DNA from: Minisyncoccota bacterium
Lineage (GTDB): Bacteria > Patescibacteriota > Minisyncoccia > Phycocordibacterales > UBA9973
Direction: 5' to 3'
DNA: 48,000 bases
Assembly (NCBI GenBank): GCA_041663005.1
Contig: JBAZRK010000001.1
Coordinates: 288,734 to 336,733, forward strand
Of the stretch, positions 16,834-48,000 are shown one piece after another. The notes below the pieces were generated by a model. That model did no database searches. It was not told where the DNA came from and saw nothing but the letters and a program-made list of their open reading frames with translations. The stretch's first letter is position 1. Each line of letters starts with the position of its first letter. Position numbers and translations under genes: made by a program.

Positions 16834-18027
16834 CTATTTAATTTCAAGTTTAGAAATAGGTGTGGGGGCATACCACTTTTTTAGTTTTTGCAAAATTTGC
16901 CCGAGGGCCTTAATAACATAATCAATATCTTGTTTCTTGGTATCTGCGCCGAGCGAGAAACGTAATGCTCCGATCTCGGGGTCAGCATCAGGGCGAATAG
17001 CTTTTATAACATACGAACCTTCGGCGCGAGAACTTTTACAAGCGCTCTTCGAAGAGGCCATTATTCCCTTTGCTGAAAGTTCTATGACGAGAAGGTCGCT
17101 TGGAATTTTCGGAAATGTCACACTCATGTTGTTAGGTAATCGATTTTCCAAATCGCCGTTTATAATGAATTTCGGACGTCCAACGTCCGAAATTCGGACG
17201 TCCAACGTCCGAAAGAAATAATCACGGAGTTTAATTACACGTCTAGCTTCTTTTTCTCTAACTTTTTGCGCCACACTTAACGCGCTAGCAAATTCTAAGA
17301 TTGCTTTCAGATTTTCCGTACCGGGACGAAGTCCCCGCTCTTGGTCCCCGCCGCCGAAAATGTTTTGAATTTCAACCGACTTTTTCTTAAGGAGTACGCC
17401 AACTCGTCCGGAGCCTGAGATTTTCGAGCCCGACAAAGAAAGCATATCTACCCCAAGCTTTTCTATGTTTAAATCCAAATAGTTTACTGCCTGCACGGCG
17501 TCAGTATGAAAATAAATATTATTTCTGTTGTTTGTTTTTTTATAGTGCCTAATTTCTTTGGCAATTTCTTTTATCGGCTGGATTGTACCTATCTCATTGT
17601 TGGCATACATTACCGACACAAGGACGGTATTTTTTTTAATCGCTTTTTTAATTTTTTTAGAATCTACAATCCCGTTTTCTTCTACGGGCACAATTGTAAT
17701 CTCTGCCAGCTTTCTTTTCTCTAGTAGTTTATAAGTTTCCAAAACGGAAGGGTGCTCTATGTTTGTCGTAATAATATGCGGAAGCTGGGTAAAGTTTTTC
17801 TGCATCTGCGAAGCTAAGACAACTCCCTGAATCGCCAAATTGTTACTCTCTGTGCCCCCACTGGTAAAAATAATTTCCTCAGCTCGTGCACCTAAAATTG
17901 TGGCCACTTCGTGGCGAGCCTTTTCGAGTTTTCGTTTCGCAGAAATGCCTATTTCGTGGATGGAGCTTGGGTTCGGGGTCGCCGAAGCAGCGTAGTCCAG
18001 ATATATATATTTCATTGATTTTGGCAT
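16834..18027 (-). CDS. iscS: Cysteine desulfurase (IscS/NifS, group I)
   Basis: IYLDYAA, IFTSGGTESNN, IEHPSV, FHTDAVQ, SLSGSK, LRPGTEN, SSKSAC. Start placed at MPKSMKY (18027). Confidence 0.93.
   Translation of the reverse strand: MPKSMKYIYLDYAASATPNPSSIHEIGISAKRKLEKARHEVATILGARAEEIIFTSGGTESNNLAIQGVVLASQMQKNFTQLPHIITTNIEHPSVLETYKLLEKRKLAEITIVPVEENGIVDSKKIKKAIKKNTVLVSVMYANNEIGTIQPIKEIAKEIRHYKKTNNRNNIYFHTDAVQAVNYLDLNIEKLGVDMLSLSGSKISGSGRVGVLLKKKSVEIQNIFGGGDQERGLRPGTENLKAILEFASALSVAQKVREKEARRVIKLRDYFFRTLDVRISDVGRPKFIINGDLENRLPNNMSVTFPKIPSDLLVIELSAKGIMASSKSACKSSRAEGSYVIKAIRPDADPEIGALRFSLGADTKKQDIDYVIKALGQILQKLKKWYAPTPISKLEIK
17171..17213. repeat. Two tandem copies of the 21-nt palindrome TTCGGACGT-CCA-ACGTCCGAA inside iscS
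   Basis: Copies at 17171-17191 and 17193-17213; perfect 9-bp arms. Confidence 0.95.
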
Positions 18028-18051
18028 AAAAGTAGTATATATTAAGCATGC

Positions 18052-18507
18052 ATGAATATAAAGCTTCAAATAGCTTTTTTTGTTTTGGCGAGCATGGCTA
18101 TTCTCATAGGCGTCTTTTGGATGATTAGGACCGAAAAGCGATTAAAAAGATTTTTCCTCGGCAAAAAAGCCAAGGACCTCGAAGACACGATAGTAACGCT
18201 GAGCCACGACATTCTAGAGCTGAAGAGTGCAAGAGAAAAAATTGAAAAAGAAATCACCGTGATAAACGGCAAATTGAGAAAGAGTGTGCGCGGTCTTGAA
18301 ACTATCCGCTTCAACCCTTTTCCGGATCAAGGCGGCAACCAGAGCTTCGCTATCGGTATGTTAAACGAAGATGGAGACGGGCTGGTGCTTTCCAGCTTGT
18401 ACTCTAGAGACAGGATGAGCGTCTTCGCCAAGCCCGTAAAGGGCGGCAAACCTGCCTACGAGCTCACTGCTGAAGAAAAGGAAGCGCTAAGCAAGGCACG
18501 CGTCTAA
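18052..18507 (+). CDS. DUF4446-like protein
   Basis: N-terminal TM, coiled coil, IRFNPFPDQGGNQSFAIGML..G.VLSSLYSRD..VFAKP. Confidence 0.85.
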   Translation: MNIKLQIAFFVLASMAILIGVFWMIRTEKRLKRFFLGKKAKDLEDTIVTLSHDILELKSAREKIEKEITVINGKLRKSVRGLETIRFNPFPDQGGNQSFAIGMLNEDGDGLVLSSLYSRDRMSVFAKPVKGGKPAYELTAEEKEALSKARV

Positions 18508-20903: not shown

Positions 20904-21485
20904 ATGGAGACCAACTTCATTATAGAGATTCTAATGTTATACCAGATGCCCGCGCTTTTCCTGGGCTCTTTTTTATTTGGTGAAACGGTAATCCTCGCAG
21001 CTTCTTTCCTCTCTGCTCAAGGATTCTGGTCCGCTTGGACTGTATTTTTTCTTTCGCTCTTGGGCACTATGTCCTCCGATGCTTTGTGGTTCTTGTATGG
21101 GCACAAGCTACTTTCATTTTTTCACCGATGGGAAAAATATCGACACCACAGCGAGCGATTTCTTAAAACTCTCGAGAGGATAACTGGCAATCATCCTCAC
21201 CGCGCCCTCCTCTTCATCAAGGCCGTGTACGGCACCAGAATTTTGACTATAATATACTTGTCGCTCCGTAAGGTAAATTTTGGGAAATTTATATTATTCG
21301 ACCTTATTGGTAGCGCCTGGTGGCTCGCAGCGATAACTCTCTTCGGCTGGCTAGCTGGCAAGAGCATAGTCAACTTGATGCCTTTCGTAGATAGTTTGCA
21401 ATATGCAGCGCTGGCCATCGTCTTTATCGTCGTAGTCTGGAGATTAACTTTCACATGGCTCCGCAAGAAAATAATCAAAGAGTAA
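20904..21485 (+). CDS. DedA/VTT family membrane protein
   Basis: FLGSFLFGE..G...SD.LWFLYG..KAVYGTR..F.LFDLIGSAWW. Confidence 0.85.
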   Translation: METNFIIEILMLYQMPALFLGSFLFGETVILAASFLSAQGFWSAWTVFFLSLLGTMSSDALWFLYGHKLLSFFHRWEKYRHHSERFLKTLERITGNHPHRALLFIKAVYGTRILTIIYLSLRKVNFGKFILFDLIGSAWWLAAITLFGWLAGKSIVNLMPFVDSLQYAALAIVFIVVVWRLTFTWLRKKIIKE

Positions 21486-22474
21486 CCGCCGTCGTATCGG
21501 CATACAATGAAGCCCCGCGCATCGAGGCTGTCCTTCAAGTTCTCACTACCTACCCTGGCTTCGCCGAAATCATAGTCATCGACGATGGTTCCACCGACGA
21601 CACAGCCGAAATCGCAAAAGCCTTCATTCGGACGTCCAACGTCCGAATGAACGTGGTGCAAAATGACAGGAATATGGGCAAGGGCTACTCAATGGACCGT
21701 GGAGTGAAGCTCGCACATACAGAAATAATCTTCTTCTCGGACGCCGACATCACCGGCCTCACTCACAAAGCCATCGACGAAGTCATCGCCCCGGTACTAG
21801 GAGGCCACTTGGATATGATGATAGGTATGAGCGACCGCAGATGGTATGTGATGCACGAAATGCTTACCTTCGTCCCGCTCTTGGGGGGTGAACGTGCGAT
21901 AACGCGCAGCCTCTGGCAGAAGCTTCCCGAGTATTACAAACAACATTTCCGCATTGAAGTGGCGCTCAACTTCTACTCTGTTTACTATGGGCAGGGGTAT
22001 AAGTATAAAATCCTAGACGGCGTTTCGCAGACTATTAAGGAAGAGAAGTACGGCTGGTGGCGCGGGGCCTGGGCTCGTTTGAAAATGTTTTATAATATTT
22101 TCTCATCTCAGCTTCGGCTCAATTTCCGCCACACTCCGCACTTCGTCCGTGAGGGACGCTGGCACGCGCTGGTGGCTCTCTACGGTATGGCTGGCACCGT
22201 TCTTGGAATTTTATTTTTTATTGCCATCTACTTCGGCCCGAGCGAATTTATCCGGTATGTCTTCGCGGAAAAATTGCGTGACCCGGGAGCACTCTTGGCT
22301 CCGCTCTTGCTCGATTTCGCGAACTTCACCCCGATTAATAAAATAGCTCTGCTCGGTCTCTTGATTTTCATTTCGAGCATTTCAATTTTCATACTTACCC
22401 GCAAGAATCTCAACTTCCTTCTCTACGGCTTCATCTATAAGCTCAAAAACGGCAAGCATGGCAAACGCCTCTAG
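21455..22474 (+). CDS. Glycosyltransferase family 2 with C-terminal TM segments
   Basis: VVSAYNE, IIVIDDGSTD, NMGKGYSM..G, FSDAD, GGERAI. Confidence 0.9.
   Translation: MAPQENNQRVTAVVSAYNEAPRIEAVLQVLTTYPGFAEIIVIDDGSTDDTAEIAKAFIRTSNVRMNVVQNDRNMGKGYSMDRGVKLAHTEIIFFSDADITGLTHKAIDEVIAPVLGGHLDMMIGMSDRRWYVMHEMLTFVPLLGGERAITRSLWQKLPEYYKQHFRIEVALNFYSVYYGQGYKYKILDGVSQTIKEEKYGWWRGAWARLKMFYNIFSSQLRLNFRHTPHFVREGRWHALVALYGMAGTVLGILFFIAIYFGPSEFIRYVFAEKLRDPGALLAPLLLDFANFTPINKIALLGLLIFISSISIFILTRKNLNFLLYGFIYKLKNGKHGKRL
21623..21651. repeat. Third copy of the 21-nt palindrome, extended to 13-bp arms, inside the GT2 gene
   Basis: TTCATTCGGACGT-CCA-ACGTCCGAATGAA. Confidence 0.95.
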
Positions 22475-23569: not shown

Positions 23570-24493
23570 ATGCATTTTCAGCGACCGACGAATCATGGTC
23601 GGCAACCCCGACCACCGGCGGAAGAGCCGCCACACATCACCGTCCACTCGGTGGAAACTGAGATTCACGGCGTGTACGATGTGTACGCGACCGTGACACG
23701 GGGCATCAGCCCCGTGAAAGATGTCCTGGTCATTTTCCGCGTCGACGGTAAAGCCGTAGACGCGCCCTGTCACACGAGTGACAAGGGTGTCGCTCAGGTC
23801 GAGCTGAAGCTGAACGCCAAGCTCGACCCGCGACAGACCGACGACCCCGACGAGCCGGAAGTGTATCACGAGTACACCGTGTCAGCGAACATCGCCAACA
23901 CGAACACTTCAGCGGAGGATCGCATCTTGGTTCTGCCCAAGGAAGAGAAGGACCTCACGAAGTGGCAGCACTTCATGATGGTCGCCTTCCTGGTCCTGTT
24001 TGTTTTGTTGGGACCGGGAACTTGGTGGCTCAAGGCCACCTTCTTGATTGCCACTCTCCTCATCGTGAAGATCCTGGCAACCAAGCGCGGTAAAACTTTC
24101 AGATACGCGATGTGGGAGGAGAACAACTGGATTTTCTTTGCCGTAGTTGGAATGTCGATCGTGTCCGGACTCATGGCATACATGAATCCGATAAGGCCAC
24201 ATTCCTTCACCGCATTCAGACATCCAGTTTGGGCGTTCTTCAACAAGATGTATTTCGGTAAACTTGCGGGCGGCTGGAGTATGGCCTGCAAGCACCTTCT
24301 CTTCCCGTGGGCTCTTCCCTTCGCATTCGTTGTCTCGTTCTGGGACAATGTTGTCGAGGGGGTTCAACATTGGCGGAGAAAAAAACATTCCGAGTCCAAC
24401 GCGAAGAGCGAGCTAATCACCCACGCCAAATACGACACGCTCTTCGCAATCATCATCAAGGTGCTGAAAGGCATCTTTGGATTTGGGGGGTAA
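23570..24493 (+). CDS. Hypothetical membrane protein with a putative N-terminal Ig-like (Big-1-like) beta domain
   Basis: SD AAGGAGG; beta-rich VYATVT..VLVIFRVDG..TSDKGVAQVEL..YTVSA, then 3-4 TMs. Confidence 0.7.
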   Translation: MHFQRPTNHGRQPRPPAEEPPHITVHSVETEIHGVYDVYATVTRGISPVKDVLVIFRVDGKAVDAPCHTSDKGVAQVELKLNAKLDPRQTDDPDEPEVYHEYTVSANIANTNTSAEDRILVLPKEEKDLTKWQHFMMVAFLVLFVLLGPGTWWLKATFLIATLLIVKILATKRGKTFRYAMWEENNWIFFAVVGMSIVSGLMAYMNPIRPHSFTAFRHPVWAFFNKMYFGKLAGGWSMACKHLLFPWALPFAFVVSFWDNVVEGVQHWRRKKHSESNAKSELITHAKYDTLFAIIIKVLKGIFGFGG

Positions 24494-24495
24494 TC

Positions 24496-24951
24496 GTGAA
24501 GAAACTCACAATGGTTTTACTCGTCATTCTCCTTGCTTCCGGCGGCTGTAAGTGGCTTCCGGCGGCGCTGAAGTCCTATCAGCAGGAGTACGATGAGCTC
24601 GCCGCTCAACCAGCGGCAACGACCGCCGCCGATGCCAAGAAGCAGTACGCGGAGGTCGACGAGTTCGTCAAACGCCTCAAGGCAGAAGATCAAGAGAATC
24701 TGCCTGACGGATTGCTTGTGAAAGCAGTTGAGTTAGACGCAAAGCGTTTGGCTCACTGCGCTTCCCTCGCCTTCCAAGAGAAAGCTAAGGGCGTTTGGGA
24801 GTGGGCCAAGAAAAAGCTCCACTCCGACGGAGTGTCGCCGAAGGAAGCGGCCAAGATTGAACCTGAACTTGCGGGCCCTCTCAAGGCTGCGACATCGACA
24901 ACTACAACGACATCCACCGAGCCCGACGACGACCGTTCGCACTACAGATAA
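24496..24951 (+). CDS. Hypothetical lipoprotein
   Basis: GTG start 2 nt after the upstream stop; MKKLTMVLLVILLASGGC lipobox-like signal. Confidence 0.7.
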   Translation: MKKLTMVLLVILLASGGCKWLPAALKSYQQEYDELAAQPAATTAADAKKQYAEVDEFVKRLKAEDQENLPDGLLVKAVELDAKRLAHCASLAFQEKAKGVWEWAKKKLHSDGVSPKEAAKIEPELAGPLKAATSTTTTTSTEPDDDRSHYR

Positions 24952-25006: not shown

Positions 25007-26083
25007 ATGGTGGGATTTATCATCGGACTTGCGACAGCATTTGGGATGTTTTGGTTCACAGAGATCGGCATCGGCTGGTCTCTGGTCGCCGGACTTGTCG
25101 TCGGCCTGCTTTTCCACTTCAAGGTGGGAACAGGTGGAACGACTACGGGCGGCGGCGGCTTCTTCAACGGCCTGGGAAGTTTTTTCTCAGGTATCTCCAG
25201 GACAGCCTGGGGAATCGTCGTCGGAGCTGTAGTTTTTTCGGGCCTTCTCATGGCCCTCAGTCGATTCCTTGAAATCTCGCCCGCTAGAGTATCAGAAGAG
25301 ATCCAGAAGTTCGGCTGGAACCCCCTCAACTGGGGTCGCATGGGCGGCCCCGTGGTATTGTTCTTCCTGTGCACGATCGTTCTACTCTTCGCTGCTCAGC
25401 AAGCGGCGCAAGGAAGAACGAAAATCGCAGGATGGATGATCGGCGTTTCAATCGTGTTCGGGATCTTGTGTTTGTATCTGCCGCACACTGCGGCCAAGAT
25501 CCTGCCGTCTGAAAACGGCAAGCCAACCTGGAACGCCACTGACACAGCCGTAGAGTTTCAGCTCACGGCTGTCAACAAGCGCGGAGTCGCACCTGTGGTA
25601 ATCACAGGCGCGACAACTCTTGCGCTAGGCGAGCCGCCCGCGCAGGAAATGAAGAAAGGCGGAGTGTGGGGCGTTTACACAAAACGCTTCGCCACCTGGT
25701 GGTGCGGGGACTGTGCAAATCCCGCACCGAGACACCACGCCTCATCTTCCGCCCCCGCACGGCGGCAATACGAACCGGCTGTCTACACGAAGCCGGTACC
25801 CGTAGTCGAGATGCGTCCCTTCGAGTTTGGTGCAGACGGTTGCACTGTCCCCACTCGACTCGAGAGCAACGCGTCGTTTTACCCAAAAGGAGGCTGGGTG
25901 ACCATTCACCCGCCTCTGCCCGCAAAACCCTGGGACGATGCCCCCGGCATCCGAAATTCCCAGGAAGGCATTGAGAAACCGGCAGGCACGTACTATGTCT
26001 GCCGGCAGACGATGGACCTCGAGGGCAATCCCCTCGAGCCGGGATGGGGTATCGACATCTGGAGTGCATTCCCTGACAAGTAG
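25007..26083 (+). CDS. Hypothetical multi-TM protein with a soluble Pro/Cys-containing C-terminal domain
   Basis: GGAGA 6 nt upstream of ATG; ~5 hydrophobic segments, GTGGTTTGGGG linker. Confidence 0.75.
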   Translation: MVGFIIGLATAFGMFWFTEIGIGWSLVAGLVVGLLFHFKVGTGGTTTGGGGFFNGLGSFFSGISRTAWGIVVGAVVFSGLLMALSRFLEISPARVSEEIQKFGWNPLNWGRMGGPVVLFFLCTIVLLFAAQQAAQGRTKIAGWMIGVSIVFGILCLYLPHTAAKILPSENGKPTWNATDTAVEFQLTAVNKRGVAPVVITGATTLALGEPPAQEMKKGGVWGVYTKRFATWWCGDCANPAPRHHASSSAPARRQYEPAVYTKPVPVVEMRPFEFGADGCTVPTRLESNASFYPKGGWVTIHPPLPAKPWDDAPGIRNSQEGIEKPAGTYYVCRQTMDLEGNPLEPGWGIDIWSAFPDK

Positions 26084-26513: not shown

Positions 26514-26903
26514 TTAGTAAGGCGTAGTCGGATAGGTAATGTCCTGGCCGGCGTTATCAACTCCGAAAGTGTTGGTCAAAATTTTAACCAAGCCCCAGAG
26601 ACCGATGATAACAGCAAGACCGATGATACCGAAGATGATTCGGTCTCGGCCAGCTTTCTTGGCTTCTTCGTCGCTCGCAATAACGTATGTAAGTACTCCC
26701 CAGATGAAGATAACGACACCCAGGGCAATTAAAATCGGAACAATGGTATTAAGAATATCGCCGATTTTACATGCAAACGTAGTCAAATCTCGCACTGCTG
26801 CGCCAGGCACACACCTATTACCACCACCCACATTCGCTGCTGCGGATGCCAAGAGAGGCGAACCTAGAACCAAACCCAACCCTATAATTAACTTCTGTTT
26901 CAT
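26514..26903 (-). CDS. TrbC/VirB2-like pilin
   Basis: Signal peptide, Cys pair, ALGVVIFIWG..Y..DEEAKKAGRDRIIFGIIGLAVI. Confidence 0.8.
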   Translation of the reverse strand: MKQKLIIGLGLVLGSPLLASAAANVGGGNRCVPGAAVRDLTTFACKIGDILNTIVPILIALGVVIFIWGVLTYVIASDEEAKKAGRDRIIFGIIGLAVIIGLWGLVKILTNTFGVDNAGQDITYPTTPY

Positions 26904-26994: not shown

Positions 26995-27705
26995 CTATTG
27001 CGACGGTGGGCAGCCGGCTGGCGGGCATACCTGCGGTAAGACCGGTCCCCCGATACCGAAAGTCTCAGTTAAAATAGCTACCAGGCCCCAGATAGAGAGC
27101 ATGACAGTAAGCGCCACTATGCCCCATATCATAAATTGCTTACCTTGCTCCCGTTTAGCCTCTTCGTCAGCGTTAATAATGAAAAATTTGATAGCGCCCC
27201 AAATGAAAACGACAGTAGCCACCGCGAAGATAAGCGGTATAAAAGAATCATTAATTAATCGGGTTACGTAGCACAAAACATCTTTAAGCGAAGAGTCGTT
27301 CCCTATCTCGCAAGTGGAGCTACCAGTGTTGCCTACCTTTAGGGGTGCAAGCTCCGGCGCATACGCGCGCAGGTTAAACGTAGTCACCACAATATTCACC
27401 AAGCCCCAGAGACCAATGATAACAGCGAAGCCTATAAGCCCGTAGATAATTTGGTCCCTCCCCTTTGACTTGGCTTCCTCACCGTCTGCAATTACATACC
27501 GGATTATTCCCCAGAGGAAATACACAACTCCAAGCGCAATCAATACGGGAATAACGGAATTAAGTAAGCTATGGAATTTACAAATCAAACCCCCTAGGCC
27601 CGGGAAGGCATCGCAAGCCGAAATGGGATTCTGGAGATTACCTAAAGGAGTGATTATAAAAGCGAAAGCTGCGGGATACGGGAGAAATTTAAGATACTTT
27701 TTCAT
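26995..27705 (-). CDS. Tandem two-domain TrbC/VirB2-like pilin
   Basis: Two repeats: FLWGIIRYVIADGEEAKSKGRDQIIYGLIG and FIWGAIKFFIINADEEAKREQGKQFMIWGIVA. Confidence 0.8.
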   Translation of the reverse strand: MKKYLKFLPYPAAFAFIITPLGNLQNPISACDAFPGLGGLICKFHSLLNSVIPVLIALGVVYFLWGIIRYVIADGEEAKSKGRDQIIYGLIGFAVIIGLWGLVNIVVTTFNLRAYAPELAPLKVGNTGSSTCEIGNDSSLKDVLCYVTRLINDSFIPLIFAVATVVFIWGAIKFFIINADEEAKREQGKQFMIWGIVALTVMLSIWGLVAILTETFGIGGPVLPQVCPPAGCPPSQ

Positions 27706-35004: not shown

Positions 35005-35011
35005 AAGTAAC

Positions 35012-35050
35012 AAAATAAAATCCCCTCATTTAAGGAGGGGATTTTATTTT
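35012..35050. terminator. Bidirectional intrinsic terminator
   Basis: AAAATAAAATCCCCTC-7 nt-GAGGGGATTTTATTTT, perfect 16-bp stem between convergent genes. Confidence 0.85.
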
Positions 35051-35071
35051 GCATCTTAATTTAAAATTTCG

Positions 35072-44967: not shown

Positions 44968-44990
44968 AAATTACATCTTAGCATAAAAAC

Positions 44991-45020
44991 AAAAAAATTC
45001 CTCGGCTGAGGAATTTTTTT
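44991..45020. terminator. Intrinsic terminator
   Basis: AAAAAAATTCCTC-GGCT-GAGGAATTTTTTT downstream of the Lys-rich ORF. Confidence 0.8.
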
Positions 45021-45039
45021 GTGAAGTGAGAAACTGGAA

Positions 45040-45307: not shown

Positions 45308-45350
45308 CCAAAATAAAAAATCGCAAAATTTTTGCGATTTTTTATTTTGG
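45308..45350. repeat. Perfect 43-bp palindrome
   Basis: CCAAAATAAAAAATCGCAAAA-T-TTTTGCGATTTTTTATTTTGG, 21-bp arms. Confidence 0.95.
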
Positions 45351-47841: not shown

Positions 47842-48000
47842 AATTGAATTAATCCACGAGCAGCTTCCGCTACCCGTGCCTTGTTACGACTTAGTCCCTG
47901 TCACCGAGCTTACCTTAGGACCCGCTTATGCGGATACTTCGGGTACTCCCGGCTCCCTTGACTTGACGGGCGGTGAGTACAAGACTTGAGAACGTATTCA
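47842..48000 (-). rRNA. rrs: 16S rRNA, 3' end (partial)
   Basis: On minus: TGAATACGTT..TTGTACTCACCGCCCGTCA..AAGTCGTAACAAGG, helix 45 CACGGGTAGC-GGAA-GCTGCTCGTG, then GATTA; the exact 3' end is uncertain. Confidence 0.97.

Follow-up and report, generated by a model that had tools for sequence, protein, structure and literature searches.

Two unrelated genes within the stretch of DNA analyzed here, a 48-kb window (48,000 nucleotides) of contig JBAZRK010000001.1 from a Minisyncoccota bacterium, share a 21-nt sequence, TTCGGACGTCCAACGTCCGAA, which is a perfect palindrome with 9-bp arms and a 3-nt loop (TTCGGACGT-CCA-ACGTCCGAA). The window contains three exact copies, all of them intragenic: two in a gene for a cysteine desulfurase and one in a gene for a family-2 glycosyltransferase (Table 1). 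In related genomes the same palindrome surrounds a gene for a protein that resembles the tyrosine transposases that accompany repetitive extragenic palindromic (REP) sequences, the so-called RAYTs.

Table 1. Palindrome copies, their host genes and other features of the window, with related palindromes from orthologous loci
Feature	Position	Strand	Remarks
REP-like hairpin copy 1	17171..17191		loop CCA on + strand; minus-strand reading SDVGRP; 9-bp arms
REP-like hairpin copy 2	17193..17213		22 nt from copy 1, equal loop orientation; minus-strand reading RTLDVR
REP-like hairpin copy 3, single	21627..21647		+ strand reading (I)RTSNVR; net +6 residues vs orthologs
Host gene 1, cysteine desulfurase (class-V aminotransferase)	16834..18027	-	397 aa from ATG
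Host gene 2, family-2 glycosyltransferase	21455..22474	+	Glycos_transf_2, PF00535
Other desulfurase-loop palindromes	L050:10841-10880, L051:3601, L052:10822, L053:10861, L054, L105:3500-3560
Terminator-like perfect hairpins	35011-35051, 44989-45022, 45308-45350		between ORFs; stems 17, 15, 21 bp; sequence unrelated to 21-mer
G+C-rich segment	24001-26000		55.6% G+C vs ~44% elsewhere
ORFs without Pfam match	24307-24951, 25007-26083
177-nt direct repeat	26577-26753, 27388-27564		71% identical
ORF matching T4SS_pilin	26995-27705	-	overlapped by the direct repeat
16S rRNA gene, 3' end	47842-48000	-	cut by window end

The doublet in the desulfurase gene and the identical third copy in an unrelated gene had been pointed out in a sequence-only reading of this DNA, and all three were recovered as exact matches. 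The minus-strand open reading frame (ORF) of the first host gene (16834..18069) matched Aminotran_5 (PF00266, E 2.8e-54). Given their period of 22 nt, copies 1 and 2 are translated in different frames, together as FRTLDVRISDVGRPKF, directly ahead of the NGD motif, whereas copy 3 reads IRTSNVR, in the loop of the glycosyltransferase between DDGSTDxTxxIAKxF and V(R)xVxN..GKG. The 21-mer, as read from its sequence, has no stop codon in any of the six frames. The stems of copies 1 and 3 grow to 13 bp via the flanking bases (GAAT/ATTC at 17167-17195, and 21623-21651, respectively), and as single-stranded DNA the doublet was predicted to form a pair of neighboring hairpins (-20.1 kcal/mol, z -6.4), against one hairpin for the single copy (-14.3 kcal/mol, z -6.5). 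Apart from these copies, the long-stemmed perfect hairpins that a search of the window brought up were all terminator-like and were judged to be located between ORFs. Beyond the three copies, the 9-nt half site is not matched exactly anywhere in the window. We take the half site to resemble the reverse complement of the DNA uptake sequence of Neisseria, but a role in uptake was rejected, as isolated half sites are not enriched and their density is far too low.

A chance similarity, an ancestral peptide or an assembly artefact would all be compatible with the mere three copies in the window, yet nothing further speaks in favor of them and we consider their probability negligible. In 100 dinucleotide-preserving shuffles of the window the 21-mer was not matched once, even when 3 mismatches were allowed, so that zero matches are expected by chance. 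In addition, the motif is present in independent assemblies of many studies, the orthologous site is filled in L030/L095, L049 and L055, and two independent groundwater metagenome runs contain the window sequence across the doublet site. The assembler contigs of two groundwater runs break at the window repeat, where the depth is ~5 times higher.

Judged from alignments with orthologous proteins, the 21-mer is an insertion and neither ancestral protein sequence nor unique to the window. The hairpins of the desulfurase sit in a hypervariable loop between LRDYF and INGD, a stretch that comprises 0 to ~45 extra residues in 120 orthologs (65-75% identical), the shortest forms carrying nothing. Peptides encoded by the 21-mer were present in ~10 of these 120 orthologs and a sister type (VLDTR..GVQH) in seven. 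The carriers are not mutual closest relatives: outside the loop, the carrier P0023 shares 91% identity with P0075 and the carrier P0095 shares 97% with P0089, the partner being a non-carrier in both cases. A series of decay could be discerned among the desulfurase sequences, which leads from the perfect form (the window and L030) via forms with one mismatch (L049 and L055) to degenerate peptides such as TLDVGKTDVQRLQ. The insert in the glycosyltransferase was missing from 59 of 60 orthologs and present in one, and the window protein has six residues more than a 79%-identical relative. A glycosyltransferase ortholog in another locus (L104:9999-11063) has the mini-hairpins TCCGCC-caa-GGCGGA and CCAGCC-tcg-GGCTGG at the same insertion point, where they encode SAQGGPASGW.

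To establish how far the palindrome is dispersed, one genome per species was scanned with the loop left free, which gave 47 loci, and a metagenome scan with the exact 21-mer yielded 47 additional loci; in total the exact 21-mer was found in 73 unique contexts. Copies with a CCA/TGG loop occur in many assemblies of Paceibacterota, Nomurabacteria and Saccharibacteria, and a variant with a CGG/CCG loop in Saccharibacteria. The position directly before the hairpin (-1) is A/T in 97% and that directly after it (+1) in 95% of the contexts, and CGTC is present within the stem only and not as an unpaired end tag. Away from the transposase gene, 28 of 40 unique copies fall in ORFs of at least 130 aa, as compared to 83% for random positions in the same loci. 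Copies that are in frame were found in the genes for GMP synthase, GatB, PurH, a Mur ligase, ParB, a thioredoxin-reductase-like oxidoreductase and an S-adenosylmethionine (SAM) methyltransferase. The host genes are mutually unrelated housekeeping genes, and the dispersed copies occupy all reading frames. In the PurH orthologs of L075 and L084 the doublets lie at different sites, which points to independent insertions. The designation 'dispersed coding-region palindrome' from the sequence-only reading is therefore appropriate, and its counter-scenario, with only three copies in existence and an ancestral peptide, does not hold, as there are many more copies and most orthologs lack the peptide. 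Six exact copies were detected over at least 334 kb of the assembly JBAZSF01, four of them at the transposase locus and two in the cysteine desulfurase ortholog.

Two side observations concern the bases adjoining the hairpin. PurH (L075:3500-3560) and ParB (L046/L069) match at 13 of 15 bases past the hairpin (TTGGARGCAGTWGAC, read LEAVD), which could represent flanking bases that travel with the element or a coincidence. Furthermore, a longer repeat with the same 9-nt arms, GGGGAGGAT-TTCGGACGT-(TGA/TCA/CCA)-ACGTCCGAA-ATCCTCCCC, was observed on high-GC contigs (L007, L010, L032, L036, L044 and L097; Amycolatopsis and others). Such high-GC pattern matches (Amycolatopsis, Thermoleophilaceae and others) were set aside as a different family on the basis of their other loops and longer stems.

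A RAYT or HUH transposase gene flanked by the motif, which the sequence-only reading had proposed to look for, was indeed found in related genomes, at ~20 loci. The 219-aa ORF of L019 (3668-4327), a locus from the same assembly as the orthologous desulfurase doublet of L030, scored 26.4 bits with the Pfam domain Y1_Tnp (PF01797; gathering score 23), and many homologs of the protein carry a precomputed PF01797 match. Its sole NCBIfam match was REP_Tyr_transpos, the model for REP-associated tyrosine transposases (NF047646), which was likewise the sole match of five further family members (E 2e-9 to 1e-4); some sources label members of the family 'REP element-mobilizing transposase RayT'. Both histidines of the HUH motif (His81 and His83; H81-F-H83) and Tyr141 are invariant in alignments of 23 and 35 members; Tyr141 is the putative catalytic residue. 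The HUH strand aligns with PDHVHLL of the ISDra2 TnpA, albeit that a PDB sequence search gave marginal matches only (E ~0.5-0.9), and a Foldseek search with the weak AlphaFold model (pLDDT 55.7) returned transposases of IS200, IS608 and ISDra2 as all of its top 29 PDB matches.

The palindrome and the transposase gene are tightly associated: in 33 of the 73 unique contexts a RAYT-like gene is no more than 450 nt away, and tblastn recovered the gene in ~27 of the loci that had been collected with the motif. At ~20 loci the start of the gene is preceded by a hairpin at a distance of 14-30 nt (or ~120 nt), a second hairpin lies within the gene at residues 57-60, and a third follows 4-43 nt past the stop; at L019 the copies are found 117 nt and 19 nt ahead of the ATG, within the ORF and ~3-5 nt past the stop. 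The genes of Saccharibacteria in L026 and L028 show the same hairpin layout and the same arms, although the proteins are only 33-34% identical. Downstream of the RAYT-like gene a 212-aa neighbor is conserved in at least eight loci, across divergent genomes, which suggests a resident gene, passed on vertically as RAYTs are, and not a hopping insertion sequence (IS), although one contig of 2.3 kb (L080) carries two RAYT-like genes. Clusters of 3-4 copies beside TTATCCACA-like words (L019, L033 and L009) had been considered as replication origins or parS-like sites, but were recognized as the conserved surroundings of the RAYT-like gene. In L053, where the desulfurase holds a different palindrome, a 208-aa Y1_Tnp gene extends beyond the beginning of the locus (L053:1-24).

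The copy within the transposase gene (L019:3847-3867) is in frame and the homologous position is filled in ~20 loci. At residues ~57-66, ahead of the HUH strand, nearly all of the 120 best homologs (P0121-P0240) display one of two peptides: S-D-V-(G/Q)-R-P, in 34 cases with G and in 26 with Q, or S-G-V-(G/Q)-H-P, in 13 with G and in 19 with Q. The alternation of G and Q corresponds to a loop that is read as TGG or as CCA, both orientations being about equally common, and D..R versus G..H to a stem that differs by two compensated base pairs (CGGACGT/ACGTCCG versus CGGGTGT/ACACCCG). The sister-type palindrome is found beside RAYT genes as well (L080). A 44%-identical relative (L061) lacks the internal hairpin, which marks the hairpin as an insertion. 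Its presence within the transposase's own frame suggests a self-regulatory or self-preserving arrangement, of a kind that to our knowledge has not been described for RAYTs before. With stems that reach 20-21 bp at this position and hairpins that are predicted to be very stable in general, one might assume a role in the RNA, where the hairpin would set the stability, pausing or processing of the host transcript, the more so because REPs of other bacteria are often transcribed and affect the mRNA (Di Nocera et al. 2013, PMC3733652). Such a role is very unlikely to explain the element, considering that both loop orientations are about equally frequent on the coding strand and that most orthologs manage without the hairpin.

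The palindrome often occurs as a two-copy unit. In 12 of the 17 unique doublet contexts the loops are opposite (TGG, CCA), and ten of those have the 22-nt period. The combination of opposite loops and this period turns the 43-mer itself into a perfect palindrome, and the doublet of L055 is predicted to fold as one hairpin (-27.9 kcal/mol). The window pair is the sole (CCA, CCA) case among the 17 and folds as two hairpins. At the same desulfurase site the orthologs show (TGG, CCA) in L030/L095 and L055, and (TGG, TCG) in L049; for that reason the window pair looks like a standard doublet in which one loop was inverted, rather than like a tandem amplification. Arrays of more than two copies were absent from the collected contexts. 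The earlier suggestion that the palindrome can expand in tandem hence found no support: the two-copy form is the standard unit, with a 22-nt period and opposite loops in at least 11 contexts besides the window, whose pair is the one exception.

Taken together, we interpret the 21-mer as a REP/REPIN-like element of Patescibacteria (REPIN: REP doublet forming a hairpin) with a cognate RAYT-like Y1/HUH tyrosine transposase, and would put the probability of this interpretation at roughly 0.7. We infer that the RAYT-like enzyme catalyzes the movement and that the intermediate is single-stranded. The enzyme would recognize the hairpin in single-stranded DNA and would nick and rejoin the DNA, copying or moving single hairpins to new places, and the 43-nt, REPIN-like unit of two hairpins would be moved more often than the single ones. 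Most landings would be intragenic, as ~83% or more of these genomes is ORF, and persistence would be limited to insertions that keep the frame in tolerant surface loops. Because none of the six frames has a stop codon, in-frame survival within essential genes is possible. Thereafter the copies would decay by point mutation, small insertions/deletions and inversion of the loop. The window, then, would present three young, perfect copies in two tolerant loops. We read the system as one that has adapted to genomes made up almost wholly of coding sequence, or has been filtered by them.

Several observations argue against this interpretation. The RAYT-like gene is absent from the 48-kb window (which is part of a 336-kb contig), and the RAYT-like proteins score 22-37 bits with NF047646, for which the equivalog cut-off is 80, marking them as distant relatives and not as equivalogs. 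The AlphaFold model of the transposase is, as indicated, a weak one and serves only to back up the other evidence. A GTAG-like guide or tag adjoining the hairpin is not conserved across the contexts. The copy number is low, with a handful per genome, and the activity may consequently be rare or extinct. A target-site duplication or a clean insertion boundary could not be defined, not even in the 97%-identical pair of filled and empty desulfurase alleles, in which the whole segment was replaced (72 nt versus 39 nt), and the net gains in length vary (18, 24, 33, 36 and 45 nt), which does not fit with clean cut-and-paste. Finally, a near-identical palindrome is found upstream of the promoters of a phage family.

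The latter, phage-like family (L072:1895-12460 and the nine viral contigs L107-L115) carries arrays of TTCGTACGT-NNN-ACGTACGAA, which differs from the window motif by one compensated base pair and has variable loops; one copy of the arrays (L072:1895, also L056) has exactly the sequence found in the window. The phage palindromes are always intergenic and located 4-10 nt upstream of the -35/-10 boxes, at up to ~23 promoters per contig. Per small gene, all on the same strand, the layout is that of a terminator-like hairpin followed by the palindrome and then the -35 and -10 boxes, and a RAYT-like gene was found in none of these loci (L072, L107-L115). The phage-family palindrome thus looks like a promoter-proximal operator, and it is because of these promoter-side copies that a protein-operator explanation stays alive as a minor rival for the element as a whole. 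The palindrome would then be the site at which a dimeric protein (for instance a regulator or a chromosome-organizing factor) binds the DNA, and would be kept by selection where it occurs, with the transposase-like gene as merely one of the regulated targets. The identity of the arms across lineages whose RAYT-like proteins share only 33% identity would agree with this, as would the doublet spacing of 22 nt, which is about two helical turns. However, the copies reside in all frames of mutually unrelated housekeeping genes, are missing from the corresponding sites of orthologs and undergo decay; the loop flips freely; and outside the phage family the position relative to promoters is inconsistent. 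Moreover, the exact motif is missing from 2.9 million viral contigs, and the GTGT variant had no match in the viral collection either. We therefore consider the operator explanation unlikely.

The desulfurase loop is also host to other palindromes. Among orthologs of diverse lineages at least six different, unrelated ones were found at this site, including TGTCAAGGAC-a-GTCCTTGACA, CATTCTCA-tattct-TGAGAATG and ATTCGCGCGAAT, and the sister-type palindrome appears at this hot spot as well, in L050 and L105. Together with the additional hairpins in the glycosyltransferase loop, this could be taken to mean that the palindromes originate locally in unconstrained protein loops, through template switching, or through repair on a hairpin template that turns quasi-palindromes into perfect ones, that homologous recombination between genomes is their sole means of spread, and that the link with the transposase is incidental. 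The replacement of whole segments between filled and empty alleles, without a clean insertion, agrees with that, and loop flips are expected from intrastrand switching. Nevertheless, a local origin seems improbable in view of the identical 21-mers that are shared by unrelated genes within a single genome and by distant lineages, and of the conserved three-copy architecture around the transposase gene. In addition, several of the 'other' palindromes show dispersal of their own, as they recur in other genes or beside RAYT genes (L057:7568, L080:147 and 1690, L073:6451, L092:7420); in L080, for instance, CGGGTGTTGGACACCCG adjoins the RAYT genes. The recurrence of hairpins in these loops implies either that the loops are simply the sole places to tolerate an insert or that a resident hairpin draws in others.

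Most of what is known of REP/RAYT systems concerns Proteobacteria, in which the repeats lie between genes. With the REPs, REPINs and RAYTs (TnpA-REP) of Proteobacteria (Nunvar 2010, PMC2817692; Bertels & Rainey 2011, PMC3116915; Ton-Hoang 2012, PMC3333891) the system described here has in common a short, GC-rich hairpin repeat, whose 21 nt fall within the REP range of 20-40 nt, a preferred inverted two-copy unit that is able to fold as one long hairpin, and a Y1/HUH gene that is flanked by its own repeats and syntenic across related genomes. It differs in that its hairpin is a perfect palindrome around a 3-nt loop and lacks the unpaired GTAG/CGTC tag, in that there is a handful of copies instead of hundreds, ~70% of those away from the transposase being intragenic where proteobacterial REPs are extragenic, and in that one repeat copy is in frame within the transposase gene, whose product scores far below the curated cut-off. 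The fold of the Y1 HUH transposase, as modeled, and the hairpins by both ends of the gene resemble those of IS200/IS605 elements (IS608, ISDra2), but gene and hairpins were not seen as a multi-copy unit, dispersal being limited to the hairpins.

For a few species, intragenic REPs have been reported (Di Nocera et al. 2013, PMC3733652). Like the intragenic GTAG/CGTC REPs and the Rickettsia palindromic elements (RPEs) discussed there, the element described here is a palindromic insertion in the frame of housekeeping genes, often a dimer that encodes an extra peptide, and for all of them the insertion into unrelated proteins argues against a function at the level of the protein (PMC3733652). In contrast, the intragenic copies of GTAG/CGTC REPs form a minority of large extragenic families, whereas here they are the majority, and CGTC REPs lack a dedicated transposase, whereas the element of Patescibacteria has one (PMC3733652). 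RPEs measure 100-150 bp (PMC3733652), as opposed to 21 or 43 nt here, which places the element outside their size range. The term 'mini-RPE', used for it in the sequence-only reading, is accordingly apt as an analogy with respect to the in-frame insertion into genes, but not as a classification, given that the element is 5-7 times shorter and, unlike RPEs, has an associated transposase. A search of the literature yielded no paper that ties RAYT or REP elements to Patescibacteria or the candidate phyla radiation.

Apart from the palindromes, the window is a typical segment of a Paceibacteria-type chromosome, with genes for BipA, ClpB, IF-2, a DUF4446 protein, gyrA, Mur ligases, T4SS-pilin-like proteins and eight tRNAs, as well as a 16S rRNA gene of which the 3' end is included. 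The G+C-rich segment, with its two ORFs, may be foreign DNA, and the direct repeat probably reflects paralogous pilin-like genes (Table 1).

A more far-reaching scenario, which we put forward tentatively and hold to be possible rather than probable, is that a REPIN-RAYT system has turned into an essentially intragenic parasite or commensal, with the hairpin mainly in essential genes and a 'master' copy in the frame of the transposase that flips its loop (Gly/Gln) and switches type (SDVxRP/SGVxHP) unharmed, the hairpin-bearing loops being reusable landing pads for other families. If true, such elements would be a major source of protein length variation in these reduced genomes. Already on the main interpretation, the element offers a concrete source for the many lineage-specific insertions of peptides in proteins of Patescibacteria and calls for caution in the annotation and structural modeling of those proteins. 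The 21-mer and the 219-aa enzyme constitute a compact natural pair for the study of how Y1/HUH enzymes recognize a hairpin without a GTAG guide. In terms of biology, the main interpretation describes a REP/RAYT-type system that persists in tiny, almost fully coding genomes by residing within the genes.

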